DNA of 62,287 nucleotides, filler included. It is 8 parts of 8 records of this genome, joined end to end, with 100 filler letters (N's around TTAATTAATTAA, not from the genome) between each part and the next. Parts side by side here need not be neighbours in the genome. Positions count along the whole stretch, not along the records: positions 1 to 20,068 come from SRR15195285_392; 7 more parts are not named here. One strand, written 5' to 3'. This document shows positions 6,588-41,643 of the stretch, piece after piece. A model generated the notes under the pieces. It ran no database searches. It saw only the letters and a list, made by a program, of their open reading frames with translations, and was not told the origin of the DNA. Within the stretch, counting starts at the first letter, position 1, and each line of letters starts with the position of its first letter. A program made the position numbers and the translations under genes.

Positions 6588-9475
6588 CTAAGCCTGGCTG
6601 CTCGCGAGTTCGCCAGTGGTCTCAGCGGCGTCTGCGAGTTCAGCAACTAGCTCAGCGTCCACCAGACCGTCTATGCCCATACTGATGGGGTTCGAGTCCA
6701 GCACCGCCTGGTTGGCGCGATACCCTCCTGTCGCTACAACGTGCTCGATCCAGGAATTCCACACCGGGTCGTTGCGTAGAGTTGCTGTGCACCCAAACAC
6801 GACGATCCCACGCTTCGCACGCGTGAGAGCGACGTTCAAGCGCCGCCAGTCCGCAAGAAAACCAACCTTACCGTCCTCGTTGGCGCGCACGCTGGAGAAC
6901 ACGATCATCTCTTTTTCACGACCCTGATAGCCGTCCACTGTGTTCACTTCAACTCCATCAAACTGTTCCTCGGAGGCGATGAGCTTCTGGATCAACTCTT
7001 TCTGTCCCCGGTACGGAGTCACGATTCCGACGTGCTCTGGTTCCAACTCTCCCGCATCGATGACGCTGCGAAGCGTTTGCATCACCGCTTTAGCCTCCTC
7101 AGGGTTAGATTTTGAGGTACCGTCCAGCGTGACCTGCTCGTCAAAACCCGTTGTTGGAACAAAAGCGACAGGAATTTTGCCACTCTGGCCGACAGGCCAA
7201 TCAAATCCGGCGGGAGGCTGCAGTGCGCTAACAGCGTCCGCGTTGCGGAGCTCGCCTTGGTAAAACTGCTTGGACGGGAAAGCTGCAATGCCCGGATGCA
7301 TCCTGTACTGCGTGCTCAGCATGATAGAAGGCACCCCCATGTCCTGCAGACTCTCAAAAAGCGACCGGTTCAGGCCACCTTGCATTCCTCGCTGTTGGCC
7401 GCAACATGGACACGCGCAGCAAAACGTCGGTGAATGAGAATGGCGAGCGAGCGCGCGCGCGAGAGAGAGAGAGAGACGACAGTATCTACAAGAAAAACGG
7501 CATAATTCATCGCTGTAGATAGGTACCTCTGTCTTCACTGTCGGCGGGAGCTGGTTGCTGCATGGCACAGCAAGGCCGGTCTCGTCAATGTTACATGCAA
7601 CCGGTTCAGTCATGCAAACAGGTGAAGGCTTGCCGCACCTATCTCCAACCAGAACAAGCTGCCTACATCCCTTCGAGATGGGTACGAGGCAAGTTGGCAC
7701 GGTTGATTGGCTCGCCTCATCAATTAGCACTACCTTGAAAAGTCCAGAGTCGGCCAGCTCGCCGGCCGCGATGCACGTCGCGACGACCACTTCTGTGGAC
7801 GACACGATATCTGCAATCATCTCCTTCCGCAACTCGTCTAGCTGCGTGCGAGCTCGCTGCAGCTTCTCTTTTATTTCCTACCCCCAAACAGAGCGTTCAG
7901 TGAAGGACTCAATCAAGAAAGATTGCTGCGTGCCACACCTACCTGTTTCGTTTTAGGCGACCCAAAGCCTGCGACGGACTGGTCAAACGCTACGACACGT
8001 CCCAGCTGCGCGTGGCGGCCGCGCTTTTTCTTTTCCGACAATGGCGGGGGCGAGGCCTGCGCGGTCTCTTCGTCGTTGTTGTCGATATCGCGCAACTCAG
8101 AAGACAGGTCACGCACCATGGCCTCGAGCTGCTTTTCTACCTTGCGCGCCGCATGCCCCTCGATCATGTGCTGCATCGACGCGCTCTGCAGATGTGGGCG
8201 CACGCGCTCAACCTGTCCAGCACGAACTGCTTTGACACCCTGGGCAAGCAGGCCTTCGAGCAGATTGTCCGCAGCTGTATTAGAATTGGCGGTCGCTAGT
8301 ACTGTAGACTGACGAAGCACTGTAGCTGAGGCTGCAGCACCACCCTTGGTTCCGCGCTTTTTGGCCCCCGTCGACGCTGCGTTGCTGCGCTGGTGGGCAA
8401 CGAACAGCTTCAGCAGCTGCACCGCAGTGTGGGTCTTGCCAGTACCGGGAGGACCCTGAATCAGAGTCAATCGCTGGGACAGAGCAGACACCACCGCATG
8501 ACGCTGGCTGTCGTTCAGGCGCGCGTCGTCTAGAATGCCAGACAGCTCTTCGCTGTCTGTTCGGAACTCGCCGGTATCCAGGCGGTGGAAGGCGGTCGGC
8601 AAGCCCTGTGGGGTGTCCCGGGCGATCTTGGCGGGCTCAGCGCGGATTTCGCGCATCGTTTCCGCGTCATCCAGCAGGAGAGCTTTCAGCCACATATCGC
8701 ACGGCACGTCCGGAGCAGCCGATTCCGAGAAGCTCAGCAGAGCGTTCGTCTGCCTCTCTGTGCTCACTGCGTTCGCTCCGCGGTCCAGCCGCCAGGATCT
8801 ATCAAGCACGTCAGCGGGCAGGTCGACAGAGCCGCTGACTTTGACAAGAAGTGTGTGCGCGTCAGCGCGGACGATGAGGCCTTCAAACCGGTCCCGGCCG
8901 TCCACGTGCCGCTTGTCCTGTGTACGACACCACCGCACTCACACATCTAGTTGCCGACGCGCAAGCTGGCAGAGCACATCGCACACACCACGTGAACTCA
9001 CTTGCGGGTTGCCACGGCAGACTGTGATGGAGTCTCCGGACGAGAACTTGTGATCCTCATGTAGACGTCCATCACCGCTCGGAGTTTTCGGCGAGAAGGC
9101 GAGCAACATGTCCGTGCCGTTCGCGTAGCCGTGCACTCGTGCCGCCATATTATCCTGCGCCAGAGAACAACAGGCATCTCAGCTCCCCAACTCGCACGTG
9201 CTGATGGCGACGGCACGTGCTCGCACCATCATCTGTCCCTCTGCACGCAAGCGCTTCTTGCTCCAGTGTGCGATGCGACTCTGCGACGCAGCCGTGTCGG
9301 CGGCCTGCTCCCACTCGACCAGCTGTTTCCACCGGTCCACCCAAGTTGCCGTCGCCTCTCCGATGCGCTCCGTCGTCGCGGCCACCACCTTGGAGGTCGC
9401 CATTCCACGATGGTGCAACAGGCACGCTCCTGGCCTGCTGGCGGCGAGCCCGAACCATCGTGCACGGGAGAGCAT
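6588..9475 (-). CDS. Upf1-like SF1B helicase of the IGHMBP2/Hcs1 (DNA2/NAM7) type, probable organellar presequence; introns 9155-9226, 8918-9001, 7878-7942, 7558-7638, 7392-7526
   Basis: IQGPPGTGKT, ATANSNTAADNL, VLIDEASQ, LVGDSNQLPP (after splicing), SLFE, QYRMHP, IVTPYRGQ, NTVDGYQGREK and RRLNVALTRAK motifs. No Upf1 CH domain. N-terminus MLSRARWFGLAASRPG. Confidence 0.88.
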
Positions 9476-9846: not shown

Positions 9847-10260
9847 CTCACAGCGGCGGGCTCGCTGTACCCGGTATGGGCGTGCGTTGAGCCGCGAACG
9901 AGCGCTCGGCCCTCTTGATCGCTTCGTGTCGCGGCTCTGGGTGCTCATCTCACATCTGCATCACTCTTCCTGGCGAGACGATCCGTCGAACGGCTGCCAA
10001 CGCTCACCCGGTAGCCACGACACTACAAGGAGGGCCTTGACGAGACTACCGGGACTTCCGAGACAGGCTGGTCTGGTGTGGGTGGGGGTAGTGCCGGATT
10101 CTGTACACCCCTCTGAACACTAGCCCCCAGCCGCCTGTCAAGATTACCGAGACTTACCCGGTCCTGGCGGTGTCGAAGTTCCTCGGCTCGTAGGTGGTCC
10201 CTGGGTATCGCCTGTGCTCTTGCCGTGTAGAGCAAAGGGGGACAGCAGCAACGTCGCGCC

Positions 10261-13200
10261 ATGAAGAAAATGGGCAAGAAGGCCAAGGTCGGTCCCGACG
10301 AAACTGGCACAATGGGCGCCGGGAACCAGTTCTCGGCCGCACAGCTGATCCAGATGGAGATGGCCTCCGAGCTCGTCGAGAATAAGAAGCTCGTGCAAGA
10401 CCTGACTGCGCAGACCAACGCGGACGCAGAGCGAATGATGGGTCTCGAGCGGGAATTGGAGGAGATGCGAGTGGCGTTGGACGAGGCGTCCGTCTTGTCC
10501 GAGAGCATGCGATCTGCTCTAGTTCGGCTGGACCCGAGCTTCGGACGATCAAAGCTGCAGCCGCTGGTCGAAGGCGTCAATGAGGATGGCTCTGCTTTTG
10601 CTCCAGCGCCGTTCGACCGCCTCGCGCCGTCGGTCTTGGTGAACATTTGCTCCATGCTTACTGCGGAGGATATCACGCGACTGGGCATGGTGTGCAAGTT
10701 TCTTTTTGATAACACGCGCGCGGATGCTATCTGGGTCACATTTTATGCCAACGAAGTCATGCTGTCGGCACCGCACCTGCAAGGGTGCAGCAAACGGGAG
10801 CGCAAAAGGATGCTGTCTTTGCCGTTCCGTGAACAGTACTGGCTCGTCCACCCGAAGAAGACACATGCCATGAAGAAGGCCGACCAAGCGGTGGACCTTG
10901 CCATGAAGAAGACAGACGAGGCCACTAGCAAGGCGATGGAACAAATCAAGCAAGAGAACCTGATAGCGAAAGTCAAGGAGAGGACCGAGATGCTCGAGAA
11001 GAGCCACGACCTCGCAAGCACCGCCAAAGAAGTCGTTGTGGATACGCAGGCATTCGACGAGGCTAAGAAGTTGGTACAGTCCAATAAAGGCAAAGCCGTG
11101 GACGCGGGTGACGCGGTCATGGTTGGACAGACGATGCTGACGCAACTCATGGCAAAAAGCAAAACGGTCCAGAACTCGGAGAAGCAAGAGCTGAAAGCCC
11201 AGGCAGACTCGATCCTCAAGGACATGCAGGGAATCGCAGGCGAAAGCGTGTTTCTTTCCACTGGGCTGATGAAGGCCAAGCAGATAATGAGCAAGACTGG
11301 GGATGGCGCCAGCGAGGAGATCACCAAGCTCAGAAAGCACGGCCTCGATCTGGCAAAAGGCATTAGTTCGCCCATGGAGGCCAAGTTGGCATTGGAACAA
11401 AACCCGGAGTTTGTACAGGAGGTGAAAATCCTCGCGATGGGTTACGTCGACGAGGCAGTCACATCGGCGAAGATACCCACGATCAAAGGAAGCAAAGAAT
11501 GGGGAACATATCAGATCGAAGGCATCCATATCAAAAAGCTCCACATCACAGAGGAAAGCCTGGATGTTTCGATCACGAAACAGGTCACGGTCACAGTCAG
11601 CCAAGTTTCTGCTGACTTTGACGAATTCACTTTTCTCTACGACAAGACAACTTTTCCCAAGATGGAAGACACTGGCAAGGCCAGCGCCCAGTTGGTCGAC
11701 CTTAGCTCGACCATTTCGTTCGAAATCGTGGTTGATCCCGAAGGTATGTTGACAGTTGATAACGTCAAAGCCGCCATCAGAATCGGGGCGCTGGATGTGC
11801 AGGTCAAGGCTGGCAATCACAAGTGGCTTTACAACAAGTTGTTGAAGATTTTCAACGAACGCATAAAGAATACAGTCGAACGAGAAGTGCGCAAGACAAT
11901 CGACAAAAGCGTGACCGCACTCAAACAGAAAATGTCCGAGGTGACATCGGTGCTTTCGAAGAAAATGGCAGATGCCAAGGTTGCTGCAATCAATGATGGG
12001 GCTCTTGATGTCGACGACGACGATGATCACGAGGATGTGATCGAGGAAGGCCAGCCGCCCGTAGATGATACTGTGGACGTGTCTGGAGACGAGGACGAGG
12101 GAGAGCCAGCCGTAGCCATGCCAACGCCAGTGCTACGGCCGAAAAAAGTTAAAAAGAAGGAAGCCATGCCACAACTTGAAGGGTACTTAGGTAAGCAGAA
12201 AAAAGACAAGAAGCGCAACATGGGCCGGGTCGCGTACCAAAGACGATGGTTTAAGGTCGAAGGCACAAAGTTGGTTTACTACAAGTCCCATAGAGACCAG
12301 GAAAGGGTGGGTGACATTGGTCTGTCGACGATATCGGGTTGTCGGATCGACACGGAAGATTCAACTATTTTCCACGTAGAAGAGTTTTCGCGTGTATTTA
12401 CTCTCAAGGCGGAAACGGAACAGCTTGCCAAGGAGTGGGTCACTGATATCGAGCGAGCCCGACGTATCGCCGAGTCCAACGTCGGTGCAACCGCTGAAGA
12501 ATCAGACGAAGAAGAGGCGATAGGCACCTCGGTGGTGGTCCAGTTTTTCGAAGAACACGATCCCGTGACGGTTCAGGGAGCGATCCGTGCATCATGTTTG
12601 GCATGCTTCGATGGAGCCCAGGCTGACGACATGAAGGCGACTTTAGCGTCAGCTGAGATTGCGCTGGCAACTCTCATGGGAGTGTTGGATGAACTTGCAG
12701 CAACTGGGAATCTTGGCCGCCAAGATGTTGTCGACGGATACGCGCAGCTCTTCCATGAGCTAATCTTGGCTAAGCTTGAGGCTGCAGCAGCAACAAAAGG
12801 CGAAGCTCACGAATGGGATCGTACTGATGGTGTAATCTTTATTGCTTGGGCTGCAGACTATCACGATCGGATCGAATCTCGAGTGGACGATCTGCAGTTG
12901 GAACCAAACATGACTATGATGCCAGTGTTTGCGGCCTTGACTGATCGGTTCGTCCCTGGGTACCAGGGTTACATGGAAAAGAAGAGCCCCAAATCTGTTG
13001 CAGGTAAGACCAGGTGGCAGAAACGGTTCTTCGTTCTGAAGGACTGCTGTCTATTCTATTACAAGAAAGAGGAAGATTTAAAGGAGCAAGCCCCTCCTGC
13101 CGGAATGATTGCCCTCGAGAATGCAAAGGAGCTGAGGCGTGAGCCTGGGTCCACTGAAATTACAATGGTCGTTCGTGGTCGCAAGACCACTCTACGGGTT

Positions 13201-15888
13201 GAAAAGGAGTCTGACATGTTCCTGTGGCTCGATAAAATCCAGCGCTCTTACGACGTTGCAAGCGTGTATTGCAACGCGCAGGGTGGCAAGCAGAAAGTTG
13301 CTAGCCGGCGCGCTGAAGAGTTCGATGATATGGGGCCCACAGAGCGCTATTCTCAAATTCGTGAAAAGTTTGCTGAACAATTTGATCCGTTGTGTGCACA
13401 ACGCGACTTGCCGGGTTCATTGGAGGCTGCTGATGTGCTACTGAATGAATTGACAGAGATCGCTGATGATATTGCTGGCTGTCAACCTCCACGCCCTGAC
13501 ATATTCGAATTTTATGTATCCTCGTACAACGAGCGTGTCTACGCAGGAATTTGCCAGTACCTCGACGATAAAGAAGTTTTGGATGTGATGGAGAAAAAGC
13601 TTGTGCTAACTTTGGTAGCTTGGGTCTACTCGTACGATGATCGCCTGCAAAAACTCGGAGTAGAACAGGTGGAGCAGAGGCTGAAGGACCACCCAGCAAT
13701 GGAACACCTTACTACGATGGTCCCGTATCGAGCAGGTTATCTGCGACGTAAAGTAAAACGTACGCAGCAAAAGGGGGTGAAAGCATATAGAAAGCAGTGG
13801 TATGAACTGAAGAACTGCATCCTATCTTGGTGGAAGCAAGAGCCGACCCCAGGGCAACCGCCACTAGGTGACATACGCATGGATCAGTTGCGCAGCGTGA
13901 ATGTGGATGGGCTCCACTTCAACTTATGGACTGGTGACGTCACCTACAATCTTCTGGCTCCCGATCAAGAGGAACTGGACAAGTGGGTTGGTGCTATCGA
14001 CCAATCTACCATGCGCGGGATCGTACAGGCAGAAGACTTCGAGTCCACAGCCACGAATGAAGCAGCACGGCAGGCTTACGTGTCGCAGCACGCCAAGAAC
14101 TGGGATGCTCAGAGTGATTCGGAGAAGGAAGCCGAAAGTAGCGCGTTGCTTGAAGGTTTGCTCGAACCTCTCAGTGAAGGGCAAATACTCAACGAGGACA
14201 GCCTGGAGCACAGACTTGGTGAAAGCTTCGATTATGTCGAGAGGTTCTGCGATATTTTGGTTGACGTTGCGAAGTGTTATCCTCGTCGCGACGATGCGCA
14301 TGAATGGCTCACCCGGAAGTACCACACGCATGTGGCGGAGAAGCTGGATGCCTTCCTAGCTGCCTCTAGCGGCCAGCAATGGTCTCAGGGTATGATCCAC
14401 ACGTTAATGTCTTGGTTATATAGCTATCAAGAAGAACTCGAAAGGTGTCGGCCTAGAACAGAAGACTTTGATCTGTCGCCACAACTGTATGATTTGGAAA
14501 CCGTTGAGCAGCTTATGACGGTGTATGTTGAAAAGATGGTGCAAGTCATGCGGACGTGGTCTACAAACTTGCTGCAAATGGAAAAGGATAGCGCCCAGGT
14601 GGAAACTACGCAGGAAGGTACATGCTTCACGGTGGTCCCCAGTGATATGTTTAAGATGATAGCCCAGCAGATGACCCTGGCGGAGAGCTCAGGCCTGCCA
14701 AAAGTTGTTGTGAGTGTTTGCCAAGGGTTGATTCCAGTGTTCGAGTATTATCAGTCGACGTTGTCACGTCAGATTCGTGAAGGGTGGAAAAAGTGGGAGG
14801 TGGAGTACCTCTGTGCGCAAGTGAACGATGGGGCACAGTGTATGGAATTGCTGGACGATATCGCGGAGGAGGTGCGCGGACTAGTTGGTGACGAGTGGGC
14901 TGAGCAGGTAGACTTCGACTCTTGTCTCAATGGCTTCTTGTCTGTGTCAGCGGCAGCTGGCGAATGCATCGCACTGTCTTTCTTCCGAGATATGCAAGAA
15001 GTAATGGACCTGATGTTTGACCAAGTTTGGTTCGATGAAAAAATTGTTAACGAGTTGTTGGGCTCAACTGCCAACTTCTGGGAAGCTTTGGCTGATATGA
15101 TTCCTGATCCACGCTATCTTAAGCGAATTAAGAATGAGACATTTCAGCAGACGATCTACTCGTACATCGAGACAATGCTGTGCAAGAAGGCCGGCAGTGC
15201 CCTACACACGCTCTCGCCCGAAAGCTTGGCAGCTATTGAAGAGGACTTGCAGATTATTGAGGAATTCATGATGGAGGAAACCATTACAGATGAGCAGGTG
15301 GACGCAGCAACTGGCACTACGGTGACAACGTCGCGCAAGAAAGGGCACCTGAAACCCAAAGTAGTTGGGCAAGGTGTTGACACGGTGAGAGATGTTGTCG
15401 CATTAATGCAGTGTAAACCCAAGGCCAAAATGCCCGAAGTGCTGGAAAACATGCTGCAAGATTGCCCCGACATAAATCTAGGAATCATCGATCGGATCAT
15501 CAGTGTGCGCGGAGACTTCAAGCCGAAGAAACGCATGGAAATCTTGAAGGCGTGCAACGCTGTGATCGAGGCATCCGAAGCAAATACTGAAGAAGTTGAT
15601 GCGGAGGGCCCCGGTACTTACCGTGTTCTGAAGGCTGCTGCAGTGCGAGAGTACATCGAGACGACCAGCGACAAGGTTACGACGCTGGAGAAAGGCGAAA
15701 CGATTGAGGTGCTAGAGACGCAGCTGAATGAGAAAGGGCAGATGCGGCTGCGGTACGCCCAGGGCTGGACGAGTCTGACGTCGCGAGACGGGAAGGTGTT
15801 GCTGCGCAAGGTGGTGACAGAGGAGACAATATTTACCGAGCTGAAACAACGCAACAAGGGGCTGAAGCAAGCGCCGCGCTTGGCGTGA
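10261..15888 (+). CDS. 1875-aa single-exon protein: F-box, BPI/TULIP-like domain, three PH domains interleaved with Sec6-like helical segments, exocyst Sec6 (EXOC3)-like domain, C-terminal SH3-like module
   Basis: F-box PFDRLAPSVLVNICSML...RLGMVCK...AIW (~10609-10746). BPI-like KIPTIKG...FPKMEDTGKA...HKWLYNKLLKIF (~11443-11900). PH motifs EGYLGKQ..QRRWF..EWV, QGYMEKK..WQKRFFVLK..LWL and AGYLRRK..KQWYELK..KWV. Sec6-like PPRPDIFEFYV, TVVPSDMFKMIAQQ and EYLCAQVND. Confidence 0.85.
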   Translation: MKKMGKKAKVGPDETGTMGAGNQFSAAQLIQMEMASELVENKKLVQDLTAQTNADAERMMGLERELEEMRVALDEASVLSESMRSALVRLDPSFGRSKLQPLVEGVNEDGSAFAPAPFDRLAPSVLVNICSMLTAEDITRLGMVCKFLFDNTRADAIWVTFYANEVMLSAPHLQGCSKRERKRMLSLPFREQYWLVHPKKTHAMKKADQAVDLAMKKTDEATSKAMEQIKQENLIAKVKERTEMLEKSHDLASTAKEVVVDTQAFDEAKKLVQSNKGKAVDAGDAVMVGQTMLTQLMAKSKTVQNSEKQELKAQADSILKDMQGIAGESVFLSTGLMKAKQIMSKTGDGASEEITKLRKHGLDLAKGISSPMEAKLALEQNPEFVQEVKILAMGYVDEAVTSAKIPTIKGSKEWGTYQIEGIHIKKLHITEESLDVSITKQVTVTVSQVSADFDEFTFLYDKTTFPKMEDTGKASAQLVDLSSTISFEIVVDPEGMLTVDNVKAAIRIGALDVQVKAGNHKWLYNKLLKIFNERIKNTVEREVRKTIDKSVTALKQKMSEVTSVLSKKMADAKVAAINDGALDVDDDDDHEDVIEEGQPPVDDTVDVSGDEDEGEPAVAMPTPVLRPKKVKKKEAMPQLEGYLGKQKKDKKRNMGRVAYQRRWFKVEGTKLVYYKSHRDQERVGDIGLSTISGCRIDTEDSTIFHVEEFSRVFTLKAETEQLAKEWVTDIERARRIAESNVGATAEESDEEEAIGTSVVVQFFEEHDPVTVQGAIRASCLACFDGAQADDMKATLASAEIALATLMGVLDELAATGNLGRQDVVDGYAQLFHELILAKLEAAAATKGEAHEWDRTDGVIFIAWAADYHDRIESRVDDLQLEPNMTMMPVFAALTDRFVPGYQGYMEKKSPKSVAGKTRWQKRFFVLKDCCLFYYKKEEDLKEQAPPAGMIALENAKELRREPGSTEITMVVRGRKTTLRVEKESDMFLWLDKIQRSYDVASVYCNAQGGKQKVASRRAEEFDDMGPTERYSQIREKFAEQFDPLCAQRDLPGSLEAADVLLNELTEIADDIAGCQPPRPDIFEFYVSSYNERVYAGICQYLDDKEVLDVMEKKLVLTLVAWVYSYDDRLQKLGVEQVEQRLKDHPAMEHLTTMVPYRAGYLRRKVKRTQQKGVKAYRKQWYELKNCILSWWKQEPTPGQPPLGDIRMDQLRSVNVDGLHFNLWTGDVTYNLLAPDQEELDKWVGAIDQSTMRGIVQAEDFESTATNEAARQAYVSQHAKNWDAQSDSEKEAESSALLEGLLEPLSEGQILNEDSLEHRLGESFDYVERFCDILVDVAKCYPRRDDAHEWLTRKYHTHVAEKLDAFLAASSGQQWSQGMIHTLMSWLYSYQEELERCRPRTEDFDLSPQLYDLETVEQLMTVYVEKMVQVMRTWSTNLLQMEKDSAQVETTQEGTCFTVVPSDMFKMIAQQMTLAESSGLPKVVVSVCQGLIPVFEYYQSTLSRQIREGWKKWEVEYLCAQVNDGAQCMELLDDIAEEVRGLVGDEWAEQVDFDSCLNGFLSVSAAAGECIALSFFRDMQEVMDLMFDQVWFDEKIVNELLGSTANFWEALADMIPDPRYLKRIKNETFQQTIYSYIETMLCKKAGSALHTLSPESLAAIEEDLQIIEEFMMEETITDEQVDAATGTTVTTSRKKGHLKPKVVGQGVDTVRDVVALMQCKPKAKMPEVLENMLQDCPDINLGIIDRIISVRGDFKPKKRMEILKACNAVIEASEANTEEVDAEGPGTYRVLKAAAVREYIETTSDKVTTLEKGETIEVLETQLNEKGQMRLRYAQGWTSLTSRDGKVLLRKVVTEETIFTELKQRNKGLKQAPRLA

Positions 15889-20267: not shown

Positions 20268-23200
20268 TCATTCAAGGATGTCGTCGTCGTCGTCGTACGT
20301 CACATCCGGCACAGACATGCCCATCGACATTGTGCCGCCGGAAGGCATGTACGGCATCGGCGACGCTGCGCAGCACAGCACAGCACGATGTGTGAACACT
20401 CTCGGGGTAGAGACGGCGGTTCGCTGCTGCTTGGGCCAACGGTTTGCTGTGGTTTGCGCGTACCTTCGTCATCAGAGCCAGTAGTGCCGAGCATTCGCGC
20501 CATAATCGCATCTTCCTCGTCCTCTTTTGCCTTTGCCCGTGCGGCTTCTGCCGCAGCGGCGGCCTCAGCAGCTTCTGCTGCTGCAGCCGCGGCGGCTGCT
20601 GCTCTCTCTCGCTCCTCCTGCTCCTTCTTCTCGCGTGCTCCGTCCGCCTGCGCCTTGGCTTCTGCCTCCTTCAACTTCGCACTTTGCTCGAGACTAGCGG
20701 CGCTGGACGCTTGTAGTTTCGATGGAGATGTAGCCGACGCTGCCTTTGCTTTTGCCTCTGCCGCTGCCTTTTCCTGCATCGCCAAGCGAGCTACGCGCTC
20801 AGCCCGCGCTGATTCGGCACTTGCTGCGCTAGACGATGCTGTGGCTGCGCTTCCGGTCGAGGCTGGAGTACTCGCTCTGGGCGTAGTCGCCCCAGTCGGT
20901 GCTGCCCCCTGCGGCACGAGAAAGCGCACCGGCAACCACAGCTTGTTTGCTTTGTTTTGCACCCATTCACCGTCGGCTGCACCGTCACCGATCGAAATGC
21001 GCCTTTCTCCCACCTGTATGATCTCGCTTGGTTGTGCCTTTGCCCCTTGGTGACGATCAGCCATTCTCGGCGTGTTGCGATACGCCACGGCGCCGCCCTC
21101 GTCCACAGAATATGACAAAGGCGGAGCAACCGCCAAGATTACGCTCCCAGCACCAGACTTCTCATTGACCCAGCCTTTGCAAACTGGTTGTGAGGAGCTG
21201 GCTGAACCGATCGCCACTCTAGTAATGCCTGTCTCTTGGTTGACTTTGTAGCCCAGCGCTTCCACACGCTGTCCCTCCTCCAGTACACCGCACTCAGTAG
21301 AGTCCATTGCGAAGCCGCTGCGGATCTTTGTCTTGCTAGCACAAACGTAAATGCTACGCTGTACTGTTGCACCCGACTCGCCTATTGCTGTTGCCATGGC
21401 AGCTGTTGCAACAGCAGCATCCTGTTCCTCGTCAGTATCGCTGTCGGAACTATCCGAGTCGCTACCAGAAGAGTCCTCATCATTAGCGTTCGCGCCCGCC
21501 GCTCCTCCTTTCCCGTAGAGGTCACCGACGCCTTCTTTGGGATTGACCATCACAATCTCGAAATCATCCGGTATGTTGAGCTCTGCGTCGGGGATGGCCA
21601 ATGACCGGTCCAAGAACTGCGCAAGGTCAGCGTCACCACAGCAGACAAGCAGAACTTCATTCAGCCATGATTCAAGCAACCGCTTGCGCTTATGCACCAC
21701 CTCCACGTCGAGGCCCTGCCCTGTGATTGAACCCAGCGCGGTTGATGGAGGGAACTCAGTAGAGCGTATGGCAGGGTTTCCGTCGGCCAATAGCTTCGCA
21801 CGCAGTGTTTTGAACGCCTGGAAGCGCTTTTCCACCACCCAAGTCTCATCGGAATCTGGGAGGAAAACTTTCACCCAATATGCGGTGAAGATCTCTGTCT
21901 GCGTCTTCTGGTCCGGGTCTCCCTGTCGAGTAATGGCCTTGACGATGCTGATTTTCGATGGCATCTGGTCCATGCTCTGCAGCTTGCTAGATGCTGCCGC
22001 ACGTTCCTTCTCCAACTCCATGGCCTTGCCTGCGGCCTTGCGCTGCTCCGCAGCCTCATCTGCTACGCCCAGGTTGATGCCCAGCTGCTTGGCAAGGTCA
22101 ACTGACACAGATCCATCTTTGGCCAAAAACATCGACACAAGCTTGTCGCCAGGGCAGAGATCGACAACCTCATCAATCCAAGCCTGTAGCTGCTCCTTGC
22201 GTTCGCGAGACTCGCTTGAATCTGATCCACCACTGGGCTGCGCTTTGCTGCCGAAGAAGCTGCCAAAGCTGCTCGTAAAGCTCGAGAACATCTTTTTGTG
22301 TGGGAAGAAGATCCCCTTGACAGCTGGGTTGCCGGTGGCAATGAGATCCTTCTGCAGCTGGACAAAGCTCGAGTACCGTCTTGCAATCGGCCAGATCTCG
22401 TTGGCGGGTGTGGTGCACTTCATGATGTACGCAGGGTCTTCGATGTCGCCGTCAACCCGGATGACCAGCAACTCTACCTTGTTGGGGTGGTAGTTCAGCT
22501 CATCATCCTGGGCCTTGAGCTTCTCAGCTTTGGCCGCCTTGGCAGCAGCCTCAAACTCGGCTTTGGCCTTTGCCTCAGCTTCGGCCAGGGTCGGATTCTG
22601 GAGGAATTTTCCCACGTCGGAGTTGCCCGGGCAGAACAGGAGCACCTCGTTGATCCAGACGTCGAGCATCTCCTTGCGCTTAGAAATGACCTCGTCGTCC
22701 ATCCCTTGGCCCTGCACACTACCAAGGAAGGCACTCTCTGGGAACGTCATGCTGCGCACGGCAGGGTTGCCGTCCGCCAGCAGCTTCTCCCGCAGGGCCT
22801 TGAAGGCAGAGAATCGCTTCTCGATTACCCACTCTTCGCCGTCCGGCGCGAAGACGGTCATGCGGTAGACCATGTAGACCTCCGTCTGCGTGCGCTTCTC
22901 CTCGTCGCCTTGTTTCTTGACAGCCTCCGAAATGACCACACGGTCAGGCTGGCTCTCGACGTCGGACATCTTCGTCGCTGCCATCGCCTCCCTCAGCGCC
23001 TCCCCAGCCCGGCGGTCGCCACCTGCCTTGTCTGCTGCAAGCTCGGCGGCGCTGACGCTGACACCGAGCACATCCTGGGCGTAAGATGCGCGCACCGAGC
23101 CGTCGTGGGCGAAGAACGCAGCGAGGTCGGTGTCACCAGGGCTGAGCTCGAGCACCGCGTTCATCCAAGTCTGCGCCGCCTCTTGGCGCTGGCGCGACTG

Positions 23201-23884
23201 CGTGGCGTCAACGCTGTCCTTGCCGGCGACGGCCTCCACCCGCTCCGGGAAGGGGAGTGCCATGACGGCCGGCTCCTTCTCCTTGCTCTTGCGCAGGGCC
23301 TTGATCTCGCTGAACTTGCGCTTGATGCCCCAGGCTTTGCCGCTCGCGGTGTAGATCCTGCGCAGGCGCACAGCCGGCTGAGCGGGCCTGTCCCTCCTGC
23401 CTCACCTGACCTCCTGAGCGAGCGGGCGAGCGAAAGAGCGGGGGCGGGCTGCGCACTTCATAATGTAGGAGGGGTCCGAGAGTTTCCCCTCCACTGAAGC
23501 GGTGAAGATCTCGACCTTGTTCGGGAAGTTCTCCAGCTCGTCGTACCCGCCTGACCCCGACTCCGGCGACCTGCCAGGCCAGCCAGCCAGCGCAGCCGTA
23601 CACACGCGCACGCGCACGCGCACGCACACAGAGAGACCATCAGCGCCAGGGCCATCCGAACAGCGCTGCCCGCAAAGCCCTGGGCTGTCGGCGCGCAGCC
23701 TCGGACCGCTCGAGCCACCGTGAGCCATCCAATGCAAGGCCGCCGCCCTCAACTAGCATGCACCACATGTGCGTTGTTGTCGCTGCGTGCTGTGTTGGTG
23801 CGCGTGTGTGTGTGTGCGTGTGTGCGGGTCGCACAGTGAGGAGGGCCCGTCATCCATGTCCTCGAAGTCCTCCACCTCGTCCAT
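20268..23884 (-). CDS. Protein with four tandem PX domains, two SH3-like modules and an Ala/Glu-rich coiled coil; introns 23571-23834, 23358-23456, 20366-20463
   Basis: Four PX cores (IKRKFSEIKAL, IEKRFSAFKAL, IARRYSSFVQL, VEKRFQAFKTL), each followed by FP..., RK..L..W.NEV and a FL motif. The spliced model runs from MDEVEDFEDMDD to ...DDDDDILE-TGA. Confidence 0.82.
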
Positions 23885-24266: not shown

Positions 24267-27200
24267 ATGCCGCCCTGGCGCTGCTCGCTGCTCATCATGG
24301 CCGCTTGCTGGGCTTCCGTCGGAAGCGCGCAGCAGATCTGGACCAACCTCTGGGCCGCAGCGCACGGCATGGACGCGATTGACGCTGATCTCGCCACGGA
24401 CGGGGACAACACAACGCATATGCGCGCATTCGCGCCCATCCGTGCAGGTGCAGCGCTGTCGGTCGACCTGCGCAGCGCAGTGAAGATTACCCACCTAGTA
24501 CGCATCCGGCCTGCCTCTCCCACCCACCCGAACTGTTGCCGTGTTGCGGTTACGACCGCCGCGTTAATTGGCTGCCCTGCGCGGCGTGTGCGAAGGTACT
24601 GGTCGAGCACCCAGACGAGTACCTGCGCTCCGGGCGGCTGACTGCACAGAAGAATGGCAAGCAACTGACGGTAGCGTCGTGGAACGACGAAGAGATGGGC
24701 CGCACCCGGACTCCAGCTGGTCACACTGTCATCGCCCTGTCGCCGCCATTAAAGCTTGTGCACGCGCCGTTTGTATTCAACATCGAGGTGGCGGAGACGC
24801 AGAGAGTCGGGTGCGACCTCGGCCGGCTCTGCAGATAGCACCATTGATTCGATTTGTAGCTGACTGTGCGCGACCGCGTCCTGCACAGGTGGCAGCTGCT
24901 CGAGCTACAGATCTACAGCCCCTCAGCGGCACCTGTGGATACACGTAAGGGACAGATCCCTGGCAGCAGGCCACGGCCGAGACAAGAGCCAGTGCGCCCG
25001 CCGCCGCCACCCCCACCCGCACCTGCGCAACAGCCACGACATAACCAGGATTCGCAACACCAGGAGTTTCGAAAACCAAAGGCGGCTAGTGCGCGTTATC
25101 AGCCAGCCAACTCTGAGTTCACCCGTCCGCGCGATGAAGCTGACGGCACAAACGATCCGACATCGCACGGGCCGTCGGGCGTTGTCTGCCAGCCAACCTG
25201 TGAGCACGGTCAGTGTCAGATGGACCCAAGTGCTGTGAAGCATACCGGCGGATCCAAGCGGGGCAAGTGCATATGCACGGCAGGGTGGGGTGGGCGTGGG
25301 TGCGATTCTGCAGTTTGCCGGGACTGCCAGCATGGCGCATGTGTGAGTCCTGGCATCTGCGGCTGCCATCAAGGGTGGTCCGCCGCAAACTGCAACGTGT
25401 CGGGTGTGGTCACCTATGGAAGCTATGTTCAATTGCGCTCTAGAAAACGTTCTGATCACCTATTGTTCTCAGACAGCAGGACTCTTTCGCCGGGTAGCAC
25501 CGCGCAGGCTGTGCTGAACTGGCTCGAGCCGTCGAACCCAGGTGGTTCTGCCATGACAAGCGGAAACTGGTGGCAAGTCCTTGGTCCAGCAGGAACATCT
25601 CCTGGATTTCTACTAGGTTCGCCTGTTCTCAGCGGTGCAATCATAAGATTCAAGCACGTTTCCAGCGGGGCATTTTTGCGAGGAGATGGTTCGCAGCCCG
25701 CTTTCACTCGCAAAGACCTGCACGAAGTGAGCGCTGTAGGTGCTCACATCGATCGCACCAGTGTCGAATGGCAACTTGTTGTGAACGGAACGGCAGCTGT
25801 TCGTCTGGAGTGGGGGGTTGCTTGGGCCATTGCGCTGCGTCATGTGGCTACCAAAGACTTTCTGACCTGCTCCGGGCAGACATACCCAGTCTCTCAACCT
25901 GAAGTCTTCGGTAAGAAACACTACATGGTTCATGAGATACAGCTGCAGAAGTACATCGCCGGTGCTCTGGCCTTTCCTAAAGATCCTGGGTATATTTCAG
26001 TTGCACAAGTGTGGAGTCTGGCTAGACATCGTGCTCCTGCAACCTCTCCGGCTCGCAGTGTGCCGTTTTCTCTTCATGCCGTTGTTCGCCTCGCCAGTCC
26101 CACATCGATGTGCTATCTAAATTATCGAGTGCAGCCACGTGAGACAATGGCCGTAGATGACCGGTCAGCTGGACTCGGCTGCGAGACTACCGACGATATG
26201 AGCGAGCTGTGGGTGGTGCTTGCCCAGTCAGAGCCACCACAATCGCACGCACGGCCCAAGAGGAGTGGAACCAACTCGAGCGCGACTCAGTGTGCTGGTT
26301 TGCGGCTCGGCATCGATAATGGCTTATCACGCGACGAGTTGTGGGAAGAATTGACCAGGACAAAGCTGTGGCAGCTGCTTGAGAAAACGGATGCTATTGG
26401 CCTAGGCGAAGACGATGTTGATGGTCTCAGCAAGACGGAGGTGGTTGAACTGCTGCTGGAGAAGATTTTGGAGCGACGCTCGCTGGAAAAAGCCTGTCGC
26501 CGTGCATCTGCTGAAGTTGTGCCTACCGGCCCGCGCTTGCGGCGTGGATCTCGGATAAAGCTGATGCACTTGCTGACACGTCGGACCATCTATTGGGTGC
26601 ACAATGTGACGCACGGTCTTGCTAAGCTGGACGCTGCGCCGACCATCCGCCGGAATATATCGTTGGATGGGGAATCTGACTGCTTGCGCATAGATGACAC
26701 TGCAGATGTCGGCGTGATGGCACCGTGGGTTGCTGGTGAAGCTATCAGGATACGAGTATGTAATGAAAATGCTACACTGCAGAGTGTTGGACAGCAAATC
26801 AGGTGGCAAGCTGTGACACCAGGTACGGATGGCTCAGATGAGACCGTATGGATTGGTGAACGCGTGCGACAACTCGCTGTCAACGTCAGCTACCTGGAAA
26901 TGGCCACGAAACTGGCCCGGTTGTGCGAAGAAAGTGGTGCATATAAGGCTGCTGAGGGTCACCTTTCTGCTGCTATTAGCGAACAGAGATCGTTGCAGAT
27001 GACACCCCGAGAGCTTGCGAATGTCCACTTCAGTCGTGCACGGATGTGGATGCGCCTCGGGCGTTCGTCGTCAGCGATTCGGGACCTGGTCATTGCGCGG
27101 GAGCACTTCCCTGAATTTGCTGAGGCTGCTTTATACTATGGACGTATCGCAACTACACTTGGTCGATGGGATGAAGCCCACGAAGCTTTTTCTGCCGTGA

Positions 27201-30200
27201 CAAACAGTATCACGGACGATCAACCTCTCCATTATCGGGCGAGTCTGTATCTGCACCAGATCAACAACATCACAGGATCAATAGGCAAAGCTGCTGAGGC
27301 TCTGGATGTCTCGATGGATGCCTACAGTACAACTGGCCGGTGTCAGATGAGTGACGGTGATCGTGATGTGTTGCGATGGGCCCGACGATTGATGACAGAC
27401 GCACTACAAGCTGCTCCTGAGAGTATAGATGTCCGAATTCAGAGGGCCGAGACCAATCTTCTACTTGGAGACCTCGGGGCTGCCAAGTCAGATGCGACTT
27501 GGGTGATTCGCCTTAGCCGGAGCAGTCCCGAAGGGTATTTCCTACGCGGAAGGGCTCATTTGTACATGTTTGATCACGACACAGCCAAGTCGTACTTCAA
27601 ATGGTGTGTTAAGGTCGATATGGACCACAAAGGCTGCGCAGCAGCACTTCGTTCGTTAAAATCAGCGACTATCAATGCAGCAAATGCCTCATCGTCATTT
27701 CGTTTCGGAAACTTCAGCACGGCTGCACAAGCGTATCAAGATTCCATCGACGCGATGCCGAACCACTGTTTCCACGTGGCGCTGATGCGTTTGCAACGCT
27801 GCCGATGCCTGATATATTTAAATCGACCAGATGCTGCTGTCGGCGAGTGTCAAATAGCGAGTGAATTGGACCCAGAGCTGAGAGATGCAGAAACTCTGGG
27901 ACAAGATGCGCAAGCTATAGCCAATTCTTATCAAGAATGGGTTGCTGAAGAACTCAAGAAAAAACAGCAGAAAGAGCGGAGAGAAAGAGCACAAGAGGAA
28001 AAGCGAAAGGCAGAGGCAGAAGCGAAGGCACGAGAAGCTGAAAAGGAGCGTCTACGCAAGGAAGCAGACGAAAAGGGCGAGGAGTTCATCGATCCTGAGG
28101 ACCCGGCGGAGTATGCAAACCGCACTCGATTAGAAGTGAAGCACAGACGGCTGGAATGGCAAACAGATAGGATGGTACAGTCCATGGCGCTCTGTGAACA
28201 ACACTTCTATCGCCTCAATATGAGCTCGTTCAAAGTCCGCAGAGTTCGCTGTCTACAGCCAAAACTTCTACACAATGGAACTTTGTGTCAGAAGCTGCGA
28301 GGGTGCACTTGGGAAGAGACAGAAAATAGCACCAAGCCCAATGGTGACGGACCAGCAAGTGTTCGTGCGAACTCGACGACGGGTAATATCGTTGATGCGG
28401 CAAATGAGACCAACGGCACCACTACTGGTGACCCGAACCCAGGTAAATGCGTGCCGAAGCTGCCAACTACAAATGATGTGAAGCGCTCATACCGTCGAAT
28501 GGCAATGGCATGGCACCCCGACAAAAAACACAAACCACGTGCCAAAGAACGCGCCGAAAAGGTCTTCCAAACAATTGTGGAGTCTTACGAGTTTCTTAGC
28601 GACGATAAGCAGCTATCTCTGTGTAATGCAGGAAACATCAAGAAGGCAGAGCAGCATCATCAGCAACAGCAGAAGAGGCAAGAGAAACAGCAACAGCAAC
28701 AACAAAAGCCCAACGGAGCACCGAATGAACCACCGAAAAATAAACCACAACCGGGTCGGTCAAAGACCGAGCCACCGAAGCAAGAAGCACCCACCTGGAG
28801 TAGAATGGATTGGCACGTCAAACCTGCGCTATTTGGACTTCTGCCGGAACTGCCCCAAACTGACACGGGTGCACCCAAGTACCGTCACCGATATTCGTTC
28901 TCTGTCCTCATCTCGAATACTGAAGAGGTGAAATCATCTACCGTTTCGAGGCTCAGTTTAACTGGTCTGGAAGCGTATGGCAATCCAGAGACCCTTATTC
29001 ATTGGCAGTCTGCCCGTCCAGCATCCGTGAAAGGGAACTTAGAGGATCTGCGGAAACAGTTCGGGGTGAAGGATGAGTACGGTAAACACACGGCTGGTGA
29101 CGGGGCAAACGGGTGGGGTGACTCTGGCGTGCAGGCGGAAAAATCGTGGTTCATTCCTACCAGTGGTCGTCTTCAGCTTTTTTTCAACGTCGATGACTCC
29201 GGAACTGCAAAAGACAAGGACGCTGCGCCAGAACTGCCGCTCGAAATGCGTGTGTTCAATATTGACATCCGAGACTACGATTTCGCAGAGCTTTTGGATA
29301 TGCCAAACGAGCAGGCCGGAGTTTCGTTTCTCCGGCTGGACATTGACAATCGCCGAGGGCCAGTGGACGTCTTCGTAGGATTATCGCGAATTACTGGAGT
29401 GCCTGAAGGACACACCAAGCTACGCCTTGACAGCCTGACAGCTGTATTCAGCGATGAATATTGGACAATCAAAGATAGCTTGACACGGAAGATGGGGCTG
29501 CTAACAGAGGGTGGCATGGATGCAGCTGAAACGTCATCCATTCATCATGCTGTTGATGGTGACAACTCCACCACGTTTGAGACAGCTGAGGCACTAAAAG
29601 TGGACCAGGCTCTGGTGGTCGACTTGCAGGTGATATACAATCTGCGAAAGGCTGTTCTGGTTGAGCAGCCAGGTCATGAGTGTCATGCGTGTGCAATAGA
29701 AGTCAGCGTAGACAGGCTCTGGTGGTGGCCGCTCCACGCGTTTACGCAGGGAGTTGGCGAAAATGTTGAGTGGCGCCAACGCGGTGATGATAGCACCGGG
29801 CTGGGTCCCGCAGACTTCCCAATAGTGGCTCGCTACATTCGACTGATCGCGACAGCAGATGAGTGGAGAGAGCACGCGCCGCACTGGGGTGTGACAGAGT
29901 TTGAAGTGTTTGGCGACGAGCTTGGTGAATCGCTGGTTGCAGATGCACCAGTGTGGCTCGAGGGTGGCGATTCCATGACAGCTCAAGATGAAGAGATTGT
30001 GGGACAGGCAGATGGGTCGGAGGAGGGAGAGGACAATGAGGGCGAGGAGGACGATGATGATGACGAAGAGGATCCCATACGGCGAGGCCCGCTAAGTTAC
30101 GCCATAGATGGTGACACATCAACATCGTACGTCACTGCACATCCTCCAGTTGGCTTGCTGGAAAACGATGCGCTGGTGATCGATCTGCTAGACACATACA

Positions 30201-30481
30201 TGCTAGCATTGATCATTGTTTGGCAGAATGAGTCGCTTGCTTGCACGATGTGCATGATTCAAAGAAGTATGGACGGCGAAGAGTGGGACGACATACAGCT
30301 GATGGTGCACACAGACGGAATGGTCGTTGCCGGGTTCGGGCCCGATGCGAATGTGTCTGCACGGTATATTCGATTTGCCGTGATAGAGCCGATGTCGCAT
30401 GTCTGGGAAGTTACTGATATCCAGGTATATGGTGGACTGGTGCTCCAGCCAGAACCGGGTGAGACGGACGATGAGGTGTAA
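24267..30481 (+). CDS. Giant secretory-pathway J-domain protein: signal peptide, discoidin (F5/8C)-like, EGF-like repeats, SDF2-type MIR domains, DNAJC3-like TPR array, J domain, two more F5/8C-like domains; introns 24498-24595, 24811-24888
   Basis: MPPWRCSLLIMAACWASVGSA signal. CEHGQC..CICTAGWGGRGC and CQHGACVSPGICGCHQGWSAANC (EGF). VTYGSYVQLR...GAIIRFKHVSSGAFL...IALRHVATKDFL (MIR). TPR helices. DVKRSYRRMAMAWHPDK...FQTIVESYEFLSD (J domain with HPD). HAVDGDNSTT and YAIDGDTSTS...ARYIR (F5/8C). Confidence 0.85.
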
Positions 30482-40100: not shown

Positions 40101-41643
40101 AGCATTGACGAGTTTCGGGCATGGTGGTTGAAACATGGCGGTGACCTGGAGCAGCATCGGGACCGGGCTTTCACGTTTGTGTGCCAAAGTGGCGCTGAGG
40201 TGCTGGTGGTGGCTAAGGACATGGAGACAAAGAATCGCTGGGTTGGTAGCTGCGCTCAGCTGCTACCGACAGCAGCATCCGACAACCTGGCACCGTCCGG
40301 TTTACTCACGTTGTACCACATGACAGGACAGAAGAAACACAGTCGCTTCTTCTGGATGAACGCCGAGTCAAAACACATCAGCTGGGGCAAGTCATTGAGA
40401 TCGAAAACTTGCAAAACAGAACCGTTGCTTCGGGTTATCGGTGCACCAGGGATACCAGACGCCCGCGAACTTTTCCACCAGACCGACACAGACAATTCTG
40501 GGTACCTTGACTCCATGGAGGTTGCGGCGCTATATAAAAAAGCGCGTGGGGAGCGCCTCGCTGGGAAGAAGCTGAAGGAGGCGATGAAAGTCATGGATAG
40601 CGATGGGAACGACCAGGTGAGCTTGACAGAGTTCGAGGAATGGTGGGCGAACAACGGCGGAGATTTCGAGCAACATCGCACCCGGGCGATGACATTTGTA
40701 TGCGGCAGCGGCATCGAGCTTCTTGTCGTTGCGCCGGACATGTCTACCAAGCGCCGGTGGTTGAAAGGATGTAAGAAGCTCGGTTTGCTCGAGTGCGTCA
40801 ACGAGGCTGCCCCACAGGACGCAGTACCTCAGCATGGTAGTCATGTAGATACGATGCGATTGCAGCAGTTAGAGAACACCCTACCCGTTGGCTGGGAAAC
40901 AGCCACATCGCAGAAAACGGGTGATTCCTATTACATCAACACACTGACTGGGGATAGCACCTACGACATGCCAACGGCGCCCGCTGATACATTACAGACA
41001 GAATTCCAGGTGATGACCCCGGCTGTCCCAGCACCAGCACAGACACCAGAGGTGGTTCAGCAGCCCACAGCAAATTCACAGGACAGCCAGAAAAAAGCCG
41101 CCGACTTTGACAAGCAGGCGGAGAAGGAATTAAAGAAGCTTAAGAAAGAGGAGGCAAAGCGCGCCAAGAAGACTGCGAAAGACCAGGCTAGAGAGCAGAA
41201 GGCAAACAAGAAGAAAGGTGGAGCAGAACCGCCGCCACCTGATCTCACGGCGCTTGCGAACGATCTGCCTGCTGGCTGGGAACCTGCCGAATCGCGCAGC
41301 ACCGGCGATATATACTATGTCAACACCGTTTCTGGAGAATCAACTTACGATCGACCATCCGAACCAGCTTTTACCGACTCGTTTTTGTCGACGGCGGGTT
41401 CGGAGGAAGTCGGTGCGTTTCGTCCCTTGCCTATGCCACACACACGTTGTTGATGTGCTAGCTTGTGGCGATGACTCTGACAATGATTGTGACTGTCCCT
41501 GCATGATATCAGATGCCTTGCCCGAGGGTTGGGAAACACGTGAGTCCCGCTCAACAGGTGAAACATATTATCTCAACGTCTTCACAGAGGAAAGCACGTA
41601 CGACTGTCCGACAGAGCCTGCGCCGAGAATTGCGCAGGGCTGA
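37104..41643 (+). CDS. Scaffold protein with six WW-like domains, coiled coil, (PE)n tract and two PH domains each interrupted by an EF-hand pair; intron 41413-41512
   Basis: Six LPxGWExxxSxxTGxxYYxNxxTGESTY-type repeats. Two units of LTxYH..GQKKHxRFFW...WGK...[DxDxSGYLD, DSxGNxQVS]...RAxTFVC..LxVVAxD..TKxRW. The GTGCGT..ATCAG intron adds the sixth WW. Confidence 0.85.

Follow-up and report, generated by a model that had tools for sequence, protein, structure and literature searches.

A picozoan-type protist gene encoding a Sec6-family protein with three tandem PH and helical-bundle units and a predicted TULIP domain

The stretch of DNA analysed here (the window, 62,287 nucleotides) is eukaryotic nuclear DNA in which genes are long and mostly uninterrupted, and the gene under study lies on the plus strand at positions 10261-15888, encoding a protein of 1875 amino acids (aa). 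This gene is real, intact and conserved, and it belongs to the nuclear genome of a picozoan-type marine protist. On the basis of its sequence, of structural models and of analogy with known tethers, we hold it to be fairly probable that the encoded protein is a soluble member of an undescribed PH-Sec6 family, in other words a Sec6 paralogue that would work as a phosphoinositide-anchored, stand-alone CATCHR tether with a lineage-specific lipid-binding head. The combination of a TULIP domain, three units of a PH domain plus a helical bundle, and a Sec6 rod appears to be undescribed. An earlier note on this DNA, made from the letters alone, had stated that no protein with this architecture was known to its author, and the literature search agreed, since publications on the exocyst, on trafficking in Picozoa, on TULIP proteins and on M-Sec yielded no account of either a PH-Sec6 or a TULIP-CATCHR protein. 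In the passages retrieved by term search, a survey of exocyst evolution mentions no PH-Sec6 paralogue (PMC6784791).

The frame is stop-free from 10231 to 15888 on the plus strand, corresponding to 1885 codons from stop to stop, and by our own arithmetic, with stops taken as 3/64 of codons, the chance of an open frame of this length is ~e^-90. The features of the gene, with their coordinates in the window, are as follows.

10261-15888, plus strand: whole open reading frame (ORF); first ATG at 10261, 1875 aa plus stop, with the upstream in-frame stop ending at 10230
10312-10314, plus strand: alternative start M18, the third ATG, where the invariant columns among relatives begin
10333-10560, plus strand: N-terminal helical, coiled-coil-like stretch, aa 25-100; a/d positions 75% hydrophobic in the best heptad register
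10630-10746, plus strand: sub-threshold F-box-like motif, aa 124-162; PF12937 at 20.8-22.8 bits, cut-off 24.3
10861-11403, plus strand: K/A/E-rich region, aa 201-381; 76-93% identity to relatives
11404-11994, plus strand: predicted single TULIP domain, similar to the N-terminal domain of BPI/LBP/CETP, aa 382-578; helix, long twisted sheet, long helix
11995-12171, plus strand: acidic linker, aa 579-637; net charge -14, with a basic patch at its end
12172-12459, plus strand: PH domain 1, aa 638-733; best PF00169 stretch, with matches to PH domains in the PDB
12532-12951, plus strand: Sec6-like helical segment A, aa 758-897; modelled helices at a predicted local distance difference test score (pLDDT) of 84-95
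12961-13281, plus strand: PH domain 2, aa 901-1007; matched by solved PH domains at Z 14-15 and a root-mean-square deviation (rmsd) of ~2 Å
13306-13716, plus strand: Sec6-like helical segment B, aa 1016-1152; Pfam Sec6 at 36.8 bits when scanned alone
13729-14010, plus strand: PH domain 3, aa 1157-1250; found by Pfam, by the structural model and by our own hidden Markov model (HMM)
14050-15585, plus strand: segment C plus the Sec6 CATCHR rod, aa 1264-1775
15586-15828, plus strand: C-terminal SH3b-like module, aa 1776-1856; weak SH3_3 match

Pfam was run on the whole protein and then on separate pieces, and the curated cut-off of each family served as the threshold. Sec6 (PF06046) was matched at aa 1335-1754 with 160.1 bits against a cut-off of 29.7 (E 9.6e-47; profile positions 125-536 of 537), PH (PF00169) in three stretches, the best of which spans aa 638-733 (E 1e-31; 110 bits against 25.1), and LBP_BPI_CETP (PF01273) at aa 393-550 (34.4 bits against 28.8). 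The F-box-like family (PF12937) at aa 124-162 and SH3_3 (PF08239) at aa 1793-1836 stayed below their thresholds, with 20.8 bits against 24.3 and 13.9 bits against 27, respectively, and no C1, C2 or MHD match was found by Pfam on the whole protein. The earlier note had read the gene as one long stop-free exon, and the frame is indeed open throughout; it had placed in it an F-box, a BPI-like part, three PH domains and a Sec6 domain at coordinates that all coincide with Pfam matches; its Sec6, PH and BPI-like identities were borne out, each exceeding its curated cut-off.

A canonical-Sec6 HMM of 728 positions, built from 25 canonical Sec6 proteins, gave three matches in the protein (aa 778-886, 1030-1143 and 1272-1795), and each match directly follows a PH domain. 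These matches correspond to HMM positions 265-359 (segment A), 247-361 (segment B) and 233-712 (segment C with the rod). When aligned by hhalign with 25 canonical Sec6 proteins, segments A, B and C gave E-values of 4.7e-5, 1.5e-15 and 1.7e-11, and in these profile-profile comparisons all three mapped onto residues ~237-373 of a 760-aa Sec6. Segment B alone matches positions 81-198 of the Pfam Sec6 profile (36.8 bits) and, in the PDB profile search, residues 305-373 of yeast Sec6 (E 7.4e-6). Compared with one another as sub-alignments of close relatives, the segments were again related (B-C, E 7.3e-8; A-B, E 1.1e-4; A-C, E 0.01), and the complete units of PH domain plus segment aligned mutually across 250 and 211 columns (E 5e-9 and 4.6e-9). 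In the structural model, each segment ends in three long helices of ~24, 25 and 20 residues. Thus, the triplication of a PH plus Sec6-segment unit, previously suspected from recurring residues after each PH domain, is confirmed by three segments falling on the same region of Sec6. Each copy is closest to its own counterpart in the relatives P0035 and P0036, so that the triplication is older than the split from these two proteins, and it offers a clean example of a helical-bundle tether lengthened by duplication of a unit.

For aa 735-1875, an AlphaFold2 (AF2) model based on 41 sequences reached a mean pLDDT of 79.8, with ~30 in the last ~100 residues. In it, the helices of segment A precede PH2, those of segment B lie between PH2 and PH3, and PH3 is followed by a long helical rod. 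The Sec6 CATCHR part was modelled mostly at pLDDT 80-95. In the structural search VIA, this rod matched the C-terminal domain of yeast Sec6p (2fji) at Z 29.0, with 346 residues aligned at an rmsd of 4.5 Å, and yeast Sec6 within the exocyst (5yfp chain C) at Z 22.9, the chain being aligned from residue 274. Foldseek agreed with VIA (E 7.3e-10), and the CATCHR fold that the earlier note had expected at this end of the protein is therefore present in the model. Further matches of the rod were M-Sec (5b86; Z 21.3 with a poor rmsd of 16.5 Å in VIA, and E 9.2e-6 in Foldseek) and the MUN domains of Munc13-1 (Z 19-20 in VIA). The HMM match to the rod starts only at position 233, the ~230 N-terminal positions being absent, and the alignment with the yeast protein begins at residue ~274, which means that the N-terminal third of canonical Sec6, comprising its coiled coil and first bundle, is missing here. 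The three tandem units of PH domain plus Sec6 helical bundle stand in for this absent third.

The beta1-beta2 regions of the PH domains carry a net charge of +6 to +9 within 28-29 residues, and PH domains with such a basic beta1-beta2 motif resemble phosphoinositide binders. No transmembrane-grade hydrophobic window was found by a Kyte-Doolittle scan of the 1875-aa protein, whose highest 19-residue mean (KD19) is 1.41, the threshold for comparison with transmembrane segments being 1.6. Moreover, the sequence scan found no N-terminal hydrophobic segment, signal peptide or membrane anchor, and the protein is accordingly predicted to be soluble.

The start of translation deserves some comment. 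Relative P0005 begins exactly at the equivalent of M18 (MGAGNQFS...), and identity to relatives is 52-70% upstream of this codon versus 75-90% downstream of it. The true N-terminus may thus be MGAGNQFS..., with glycine at position 2, a start that would allow N-myristoylation, for which glutamine at residue 6, as found in this peptide, is unfavoured. The coding strand is purine-rich along the ORF (GC skew +0.09 to +0.16; AT skew +0.09 to +0.19). Opposite the N-terminal part of the gene there is also an antisense stop-free frame of 527 codons, at 10549-12132 on the minus strand, which is most likely a by-product of the composition skew of the coding strand.

Among the remaining modules is the predicted TULIP domain. 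Scanned alone, the TULIP segment scored 37.3 bits for PF01273 against the cut-off of 28.8, and in three relatives the same family gave 33.7 and 35.3 bits, above the cut-off, and 28.6 bits, just below it, in P0003. For aa 375-600, AF2 gave from 11 sequences a model with a mean pLDDT of 65.1, in which one helix and a long-stranded sheet are followed by a helix of 58 residues. Against the PDB, Foldseek returned 36 matches at E <= 0.001, with LBP (E 1.2e-7), BPI (TMq 0.61) and CETP at the head and Der f 7, Takeout, JHBP and SPLUNC1 after them. A search independent of Foldseek (VIA wide) placed BPI first (Z 13.1; 202 residues, rmsd 4.3 Å), with CETP at Z 12.6, Der f 7 at Z 10.6 and the SMP proteins Mdm12 and Mmm1 at Z 5.2-7.1. 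Profile and model together support a TULIP fold for aa 382-578, in line with the BPI/TULIP-like segment of the earlier note. Pfam found a single PF01273 stretch in the whole protein and no second barrel or C-terminal BPI domain. As neither a signal peptide nor a membrane anchor is present, it probably resides in the cytosol, as SMP domains do, though its sequence is nearer to the BPI type. Atlas searches gave hits for the TULIP domain and the C-terminal module with scores of 0.80-0.86, which count as leads only.

The domain sits behind a K/A/E-rich region (aa 201-381) that gave no Pfam match when scanned as a separate piece and that we take, from its composition, to be helical, and it is followed by the acidic linker, which is 66% identical to P0005, level with the link at aa 734-757; these are the two least conserved parts. 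As for the N-terminal coil, it was considered as a possible Sec6 CorEx-like helix and rejected, given that hhalign found no similarity between it and the canonical Sec6 N-terminus (probability 1.5%).

The two other modules named by the earlier note fared less well. Its F-box recurs as a consistent match at the same place in 5/5 relatives, with 15.8-23.7 bits, but the match is below the cut-off here (22.8 bits against 24.3 when scanned separately) and 0/5 relatives reach it. The SH3-like module is also weak, SH3_3 scoring 13.9-18.2 bits, below the cut-off of 27, in a module that was poorly modelled (pLDDT ~30) and gave Atlas leads of <= 0.80. Many other proteins (P0047-P0051, P0066, P0098) contain this C-terminal module of ~85 aa as 2-7 tandem copies that are 36-45% identical to it, and 4/6 scanned proteins that share it reach the SH3_3 cut-off; one carrier is a 2052-aa protein of Picozoa SAG22 with cyclic-nucleotide-binding domains. 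To judge from these matches, the C-terminal module looks like an SH3b-type repeat family expanded in these protists. Stand-alone relatives of the F-box/TULIP half were not found, all 16 shorter matches being pieces of close relatives (46-91% identity) in a word-seeded search, whose reach is limited accordingly.

Relatives of the protein were found at two levels. The close ones are named Picozoa sp. COSAG02 and Picomonas judraskeda, with one fragment from COSAG05. For the wider family, a search with aa 735-1875 among 1.84 billion representatives gave 580 matches at E <= 0.001, of which the best 150 were analysed; among these 150, our own HMMs matched Sec6 in 86, PH in 26 and both in 15. Besides pieces of close relatives, the proteins with both are P0035 (1359 aa, four PH domains), P0036 (with three PH domains, from Picozoa sp. 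SAG31), P0056 from Rhodelphis marinus, and P0045, P0046, P0102, P0103, P0113, P0120 and P0135. P0045 and P0046, the latter from Goniomonas pacifica, have two PH domains each, with two canonical-Sec6 HMM matches in the former and one in the latter, and a segment-B HMM finds its segment twice in both. In 14/15 PH-Sec6 proteins the Sec6 HMM match begins at position 153-298, the exception being P0056, in which it begins at position 52. Neither a TULIP nor an F-box-like part was found in any Pfam-scanned PH-Sec6 relative outside the close ones. As far as these matches tell, a simpler core of PH plus Sec6 is thus present in other Picozoa, Rhodelphis, Goniomonas and further marine protists.

A tree of 68 Sec6 bodies was obtained by a quick IQ-TREE search with SH-aLRT support. 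One branch (SH-aLRT 94) has on one side 51 rows without a detected PH domain, among them Palpitomonas, Cyanophora, Mesostigma, Planoprotostelium, a heterolobosean and a partial Rhodelphis Sec6, and on the opposite side all 15 PH-Sec6 rows, with which the protein studied here groups, not with canonical Sec6. Rhodelphis has one protein on each side, a PH-Sec6 protein and a canonical-side Sec6. Together with the absence of the first ~230 canonical positions, this grouping outside the 51 canonical rows led us to answer the earlier description of the gene as an exocyst Sec6 plus extra domains with a probable no: the protein probably works on its own or alongside the exocyst, not as the Sec6 subunit of that complex, and the label "exocyst Sec6" is better replaced by "Sec6-family paralogue of the PH-Sec6 type".

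Such an unusual mix of domains could have arisen as an artefact, an assembly or gene-model chimera of unrelated genes, a concern that the earlier note had itself raised and that gains something from the possibility that the best DNA-bearing runs include the sample of origin. This explanation is nevertheless extremely improbable, and it was rejected. The same architecture was found in full-length relatives in four 90%-identity clusters, all of 1874-1909 aa, with 79-94% identity and the same Pfam set, drawn from Logan, JGI, ENA and EukProt on contigs of up to 35 kb, so that the earlier suggestion to look for the architecture elsewhere had a positive outcome. Independent contigs tile the ORF and run across the borders between domains: in two other runs, DNA contigs cover 30/30 bins at >=99% identity with no joints, and a single contig of 2792 nucleotides bridges 11272-14063, from the TULIP domain to PH3. 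At least half of the sampled words are held by 14 sequencing runs and some part by 19, from 14 studies, and 7/12 variants within the ORF in other runs are synonymous, a count that leaves out two listed variants outside the ORF. RNA-library contigs cover 26/30 bins (X13) and 16/30 (X15) with no splice joints, a coverage that is not proof of transcription, and the bins left uncovered carry no weight either way.

In the most distant full-length relative, which is 79.6% identical overall, all modules retain 71-88% identity and the linkers 66%; the TULIP domain and the C-terminal module are the most conserved (88%), followed by segment A (86%), the PH domains (80-83%) and the Sec6 core (78%). Two fragments from relatives further away, at 55-71% identity, still have the last part of the TULIP domain, PH1, segment A, PH2 and segment B in one frame. 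The ORF fragments of distant relatives (P0191-P0199, P0033, P0034, P0037) break at aa ~386, ~514 and ~1147-1154, and the fact that they share these positions suggests introns in those relatives that are absent from this copy.

Several observations weigh against the reading of the protein as a functional PH-Sec6 paralogue with a lipid-binding head. In the tree, P0170 and the fragment P0144 lie on the PH-Sec6 side with no PH domain detected, the PH label needs 3 changes, and, with long PH-Sec6 branches and a quick search, a long-branch effect could be what keeps these rows out of the canonical group. The TULIP model is of moderate confidence only (pLDDT 65), the F-box remains below the Pfam cut-off in the protein and in all 5 relatives scanned, with no F-box chain found in the PDB profile search at E <= 1, and the RNA-library coverage leaves transcription unproven. 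Lastly, this protein could be the organism's only Sec6. In that event it would function within the exocyst, having acquired PH, TULIP and further modules, and would join the octamer by contacts other than those of the canonical N-terminus, which we regard as unlikely. The Sec6 match is strong across the whole CATCHR body, an N-terminal coil is present, and no picozoan canonical Sec6 was among the 20-24 proteins looked up by name, a lookup that is no dedicated test of absence. However, the coil does not resemble canonical Sec6 N-termini, and the first ~230 canonical positions are missing; dimerisation and the binding of Sec9 and Sec1 belong to the N-terminal part of Sec6 (PMC3849599, in part). 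The 160 Pfam bits also fall short of the 264-400 bits of five full-length canonical proteins scanned, and Rhodelphis keeps both a PH-Sec6 protein and a canonical-side Sec6.

A further alternative concerns the accessory modules, which would be decaying or purely structural: the protein would be just a PH-anchored scaffold, its TULIP-like part would no longer bind lipid and its F-box-like motif would be a chance resemblance. The sub-threshold F-box scores here and in 5/5 relatives fit this idea, as do the modest Pfam score of the TULIP domain, with P0003 just under the cut-off, and its moderately confident model. We judge it quite improbable all the same: it is precisely the TULIP domain and the C-terminal module that are most conserved in the most distant full-length relative, at 88% against 79.6% overall; conservation of the F-box-like stretch is 82-94%, and even P0192, which is 46.5% identical over the N-terminal region, retains a recognisable version of it (23.7 bits). 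The PH-Sec6 paralogue with a lipid-binding head is the reading that we prefer.

Most of the domain pairings in this protein have precedents, namely PH plus CATCHR, F-box plus an exocyst-like region, and a phosphoinositide-binding Sec6 paralogue; only for TULIP plus CATCHR was none found. With Sec6/EXOC3, the protein has the CATCHR body in common, in sequence family as well as in fold, and it differs in the absent N-terminal third, the bundle present three times, the interleaved PH domains and the added TULIP, F-box-like and SH3b-like parts. M-Sec/TNFAIP2, a metazoan Sec6 paralogue, is likewise a helical-bundle rod of the Sec6 type that is held on PI(4,5)P2 and works with RalA and the exocyst, at the side of the complex and not as a part of it (PMC5024327, in part), yet it reaches PI(4,5)P2 through an N-terminal polybasic region and has no PH domain, no TULIP domain and no repeated bundle; the likeness carries no indication of orthology. 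CAPS and Munc13 also combine lipid-binding domains with a Sec6-like CATCHR rod on one chain, CAPS joining a PIP2-binding PH domain to the rod, whose MHD1 binds SNAREs, and CATCHR rods in general scaffold SNAREs and other partners (PMC3849599, in part). Unlike these MHD/MUN and C1/C2 proteins, the present one belongs to the Sec6 sequence family, so that the likeness is structural only, and a copy of the duplicated bundle accompanies each of its three PH domains. The Rcy1p/Pof6 type offers an N-terminal F-box with an exocyst-subunit-like C-terminal region, acting in endosomal recycling in the case of Rcy1p (PMC2175155, in part), but that region is Sec10-like instead of Sec6-like, PH and TULIP domains are lacking, and the F-box here is sub-threshold. 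The TULIP proteins (BPI, LBP, CETP, Takeout/JHBP, Der f 7 and SPLUNC1, besides the SMP domains of Mmm1/Mdm12) have the fold in common with aa 382-578, which falls in the BPI-type Pfam family; BPI, LBP and CETP are secreted and have two barrels, in contrast with the one barrel found here, fused to a CATCHR tether.

In the mechanism that we propose, the three strongly basic PH domains would hold the elongated rod on a phosphoinositide-rich membrane, and the CATCHR body would engage a vesicle or a SNARE/GTPase partner, as in Sec6, M-Sec and CAPS/Munc13. The TULIP head, carried on a long helical and acidic spacer in a protein whose exocyst-assembly end is absent, could bind or shuttle lipid at the tethered interface, and the F-box-like motif, if functional, could recruit Skp1 as in Rcy1p. 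The earlier note had likewise suggested a single chain that couples tethering, lipid transfer and ubiquitin control, a suggestion drawn from domain content. More tentatively, the PH-Sec6 proteins might form an ancient, so far unrecognised family of CATCHR tethers that act alone and that occur in heterotrophs related to Archaeplastida and Cryptista, namely Picozoa, Rhodelphis, Goniomonas and other marine protists. PH domains would have replaced the exocyst-assembly end, duplication of the PH plus bundle unit would have lengthened the rod, and the picozoan form would be the first tether physically joined to a TULIP lipid-transfer module; we would put this no higher than a possibility on the doubtful side.

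Vesicle tethering by CATCHR proteins and non-vesicular lipid transfer by TULIP/SMP domains at contact sites are usually treated as separate machineries, and a conserved fusion that also contains three phosphoinositide readers would provide a test case for their coupling on one molecule. If the proposal is true, docking of a vesicle or organelle and transfer of lipid across the intervening gap could be performed by a single molecule, which could tie in with the unusual membrane traffic of Picozoa during feeding. In addition, the PH-Sec6 group suggests that Sec6 paralogues exist outside animals, where M-Sec and EXOC3L represent them.

The other genes of the window encode an Upf1-like helicase, EF-hand proteins, a three-PX protein, a Nup160/120-like protein, a protein with four WW domains and EF-hands, a leucine-rich repeat protein and a class-V aminotransferase. 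The Upf1-like helicase (AAA_11 + AAA_12), at 6588-8938 on the minus strand, is split over the frames 7913-8938 and 6588-7877, probably by a short intron or a frame change. Some 4.4 kb downstream of the PH-Sec6 ORF lies a second phosphoinositide-reading multidomain gene, a frame of 1033 aa at 20300-23401 on the minus strand with three PX stretches (PF00787, E 3.4e-32). The 1873-aa frame at 24860-30481 on the plus strand has matches to EGF-like, TPR, DnaJ and F5/8 type C (discoidin) domains; its similar length had made it a candidate paralogue of the PH-Sec6 gene, but the two are unrelated. Finally, the frame of 1449 aa at 37104-41453 on the plus strand encodes four WW domains followed by several EF-hands.

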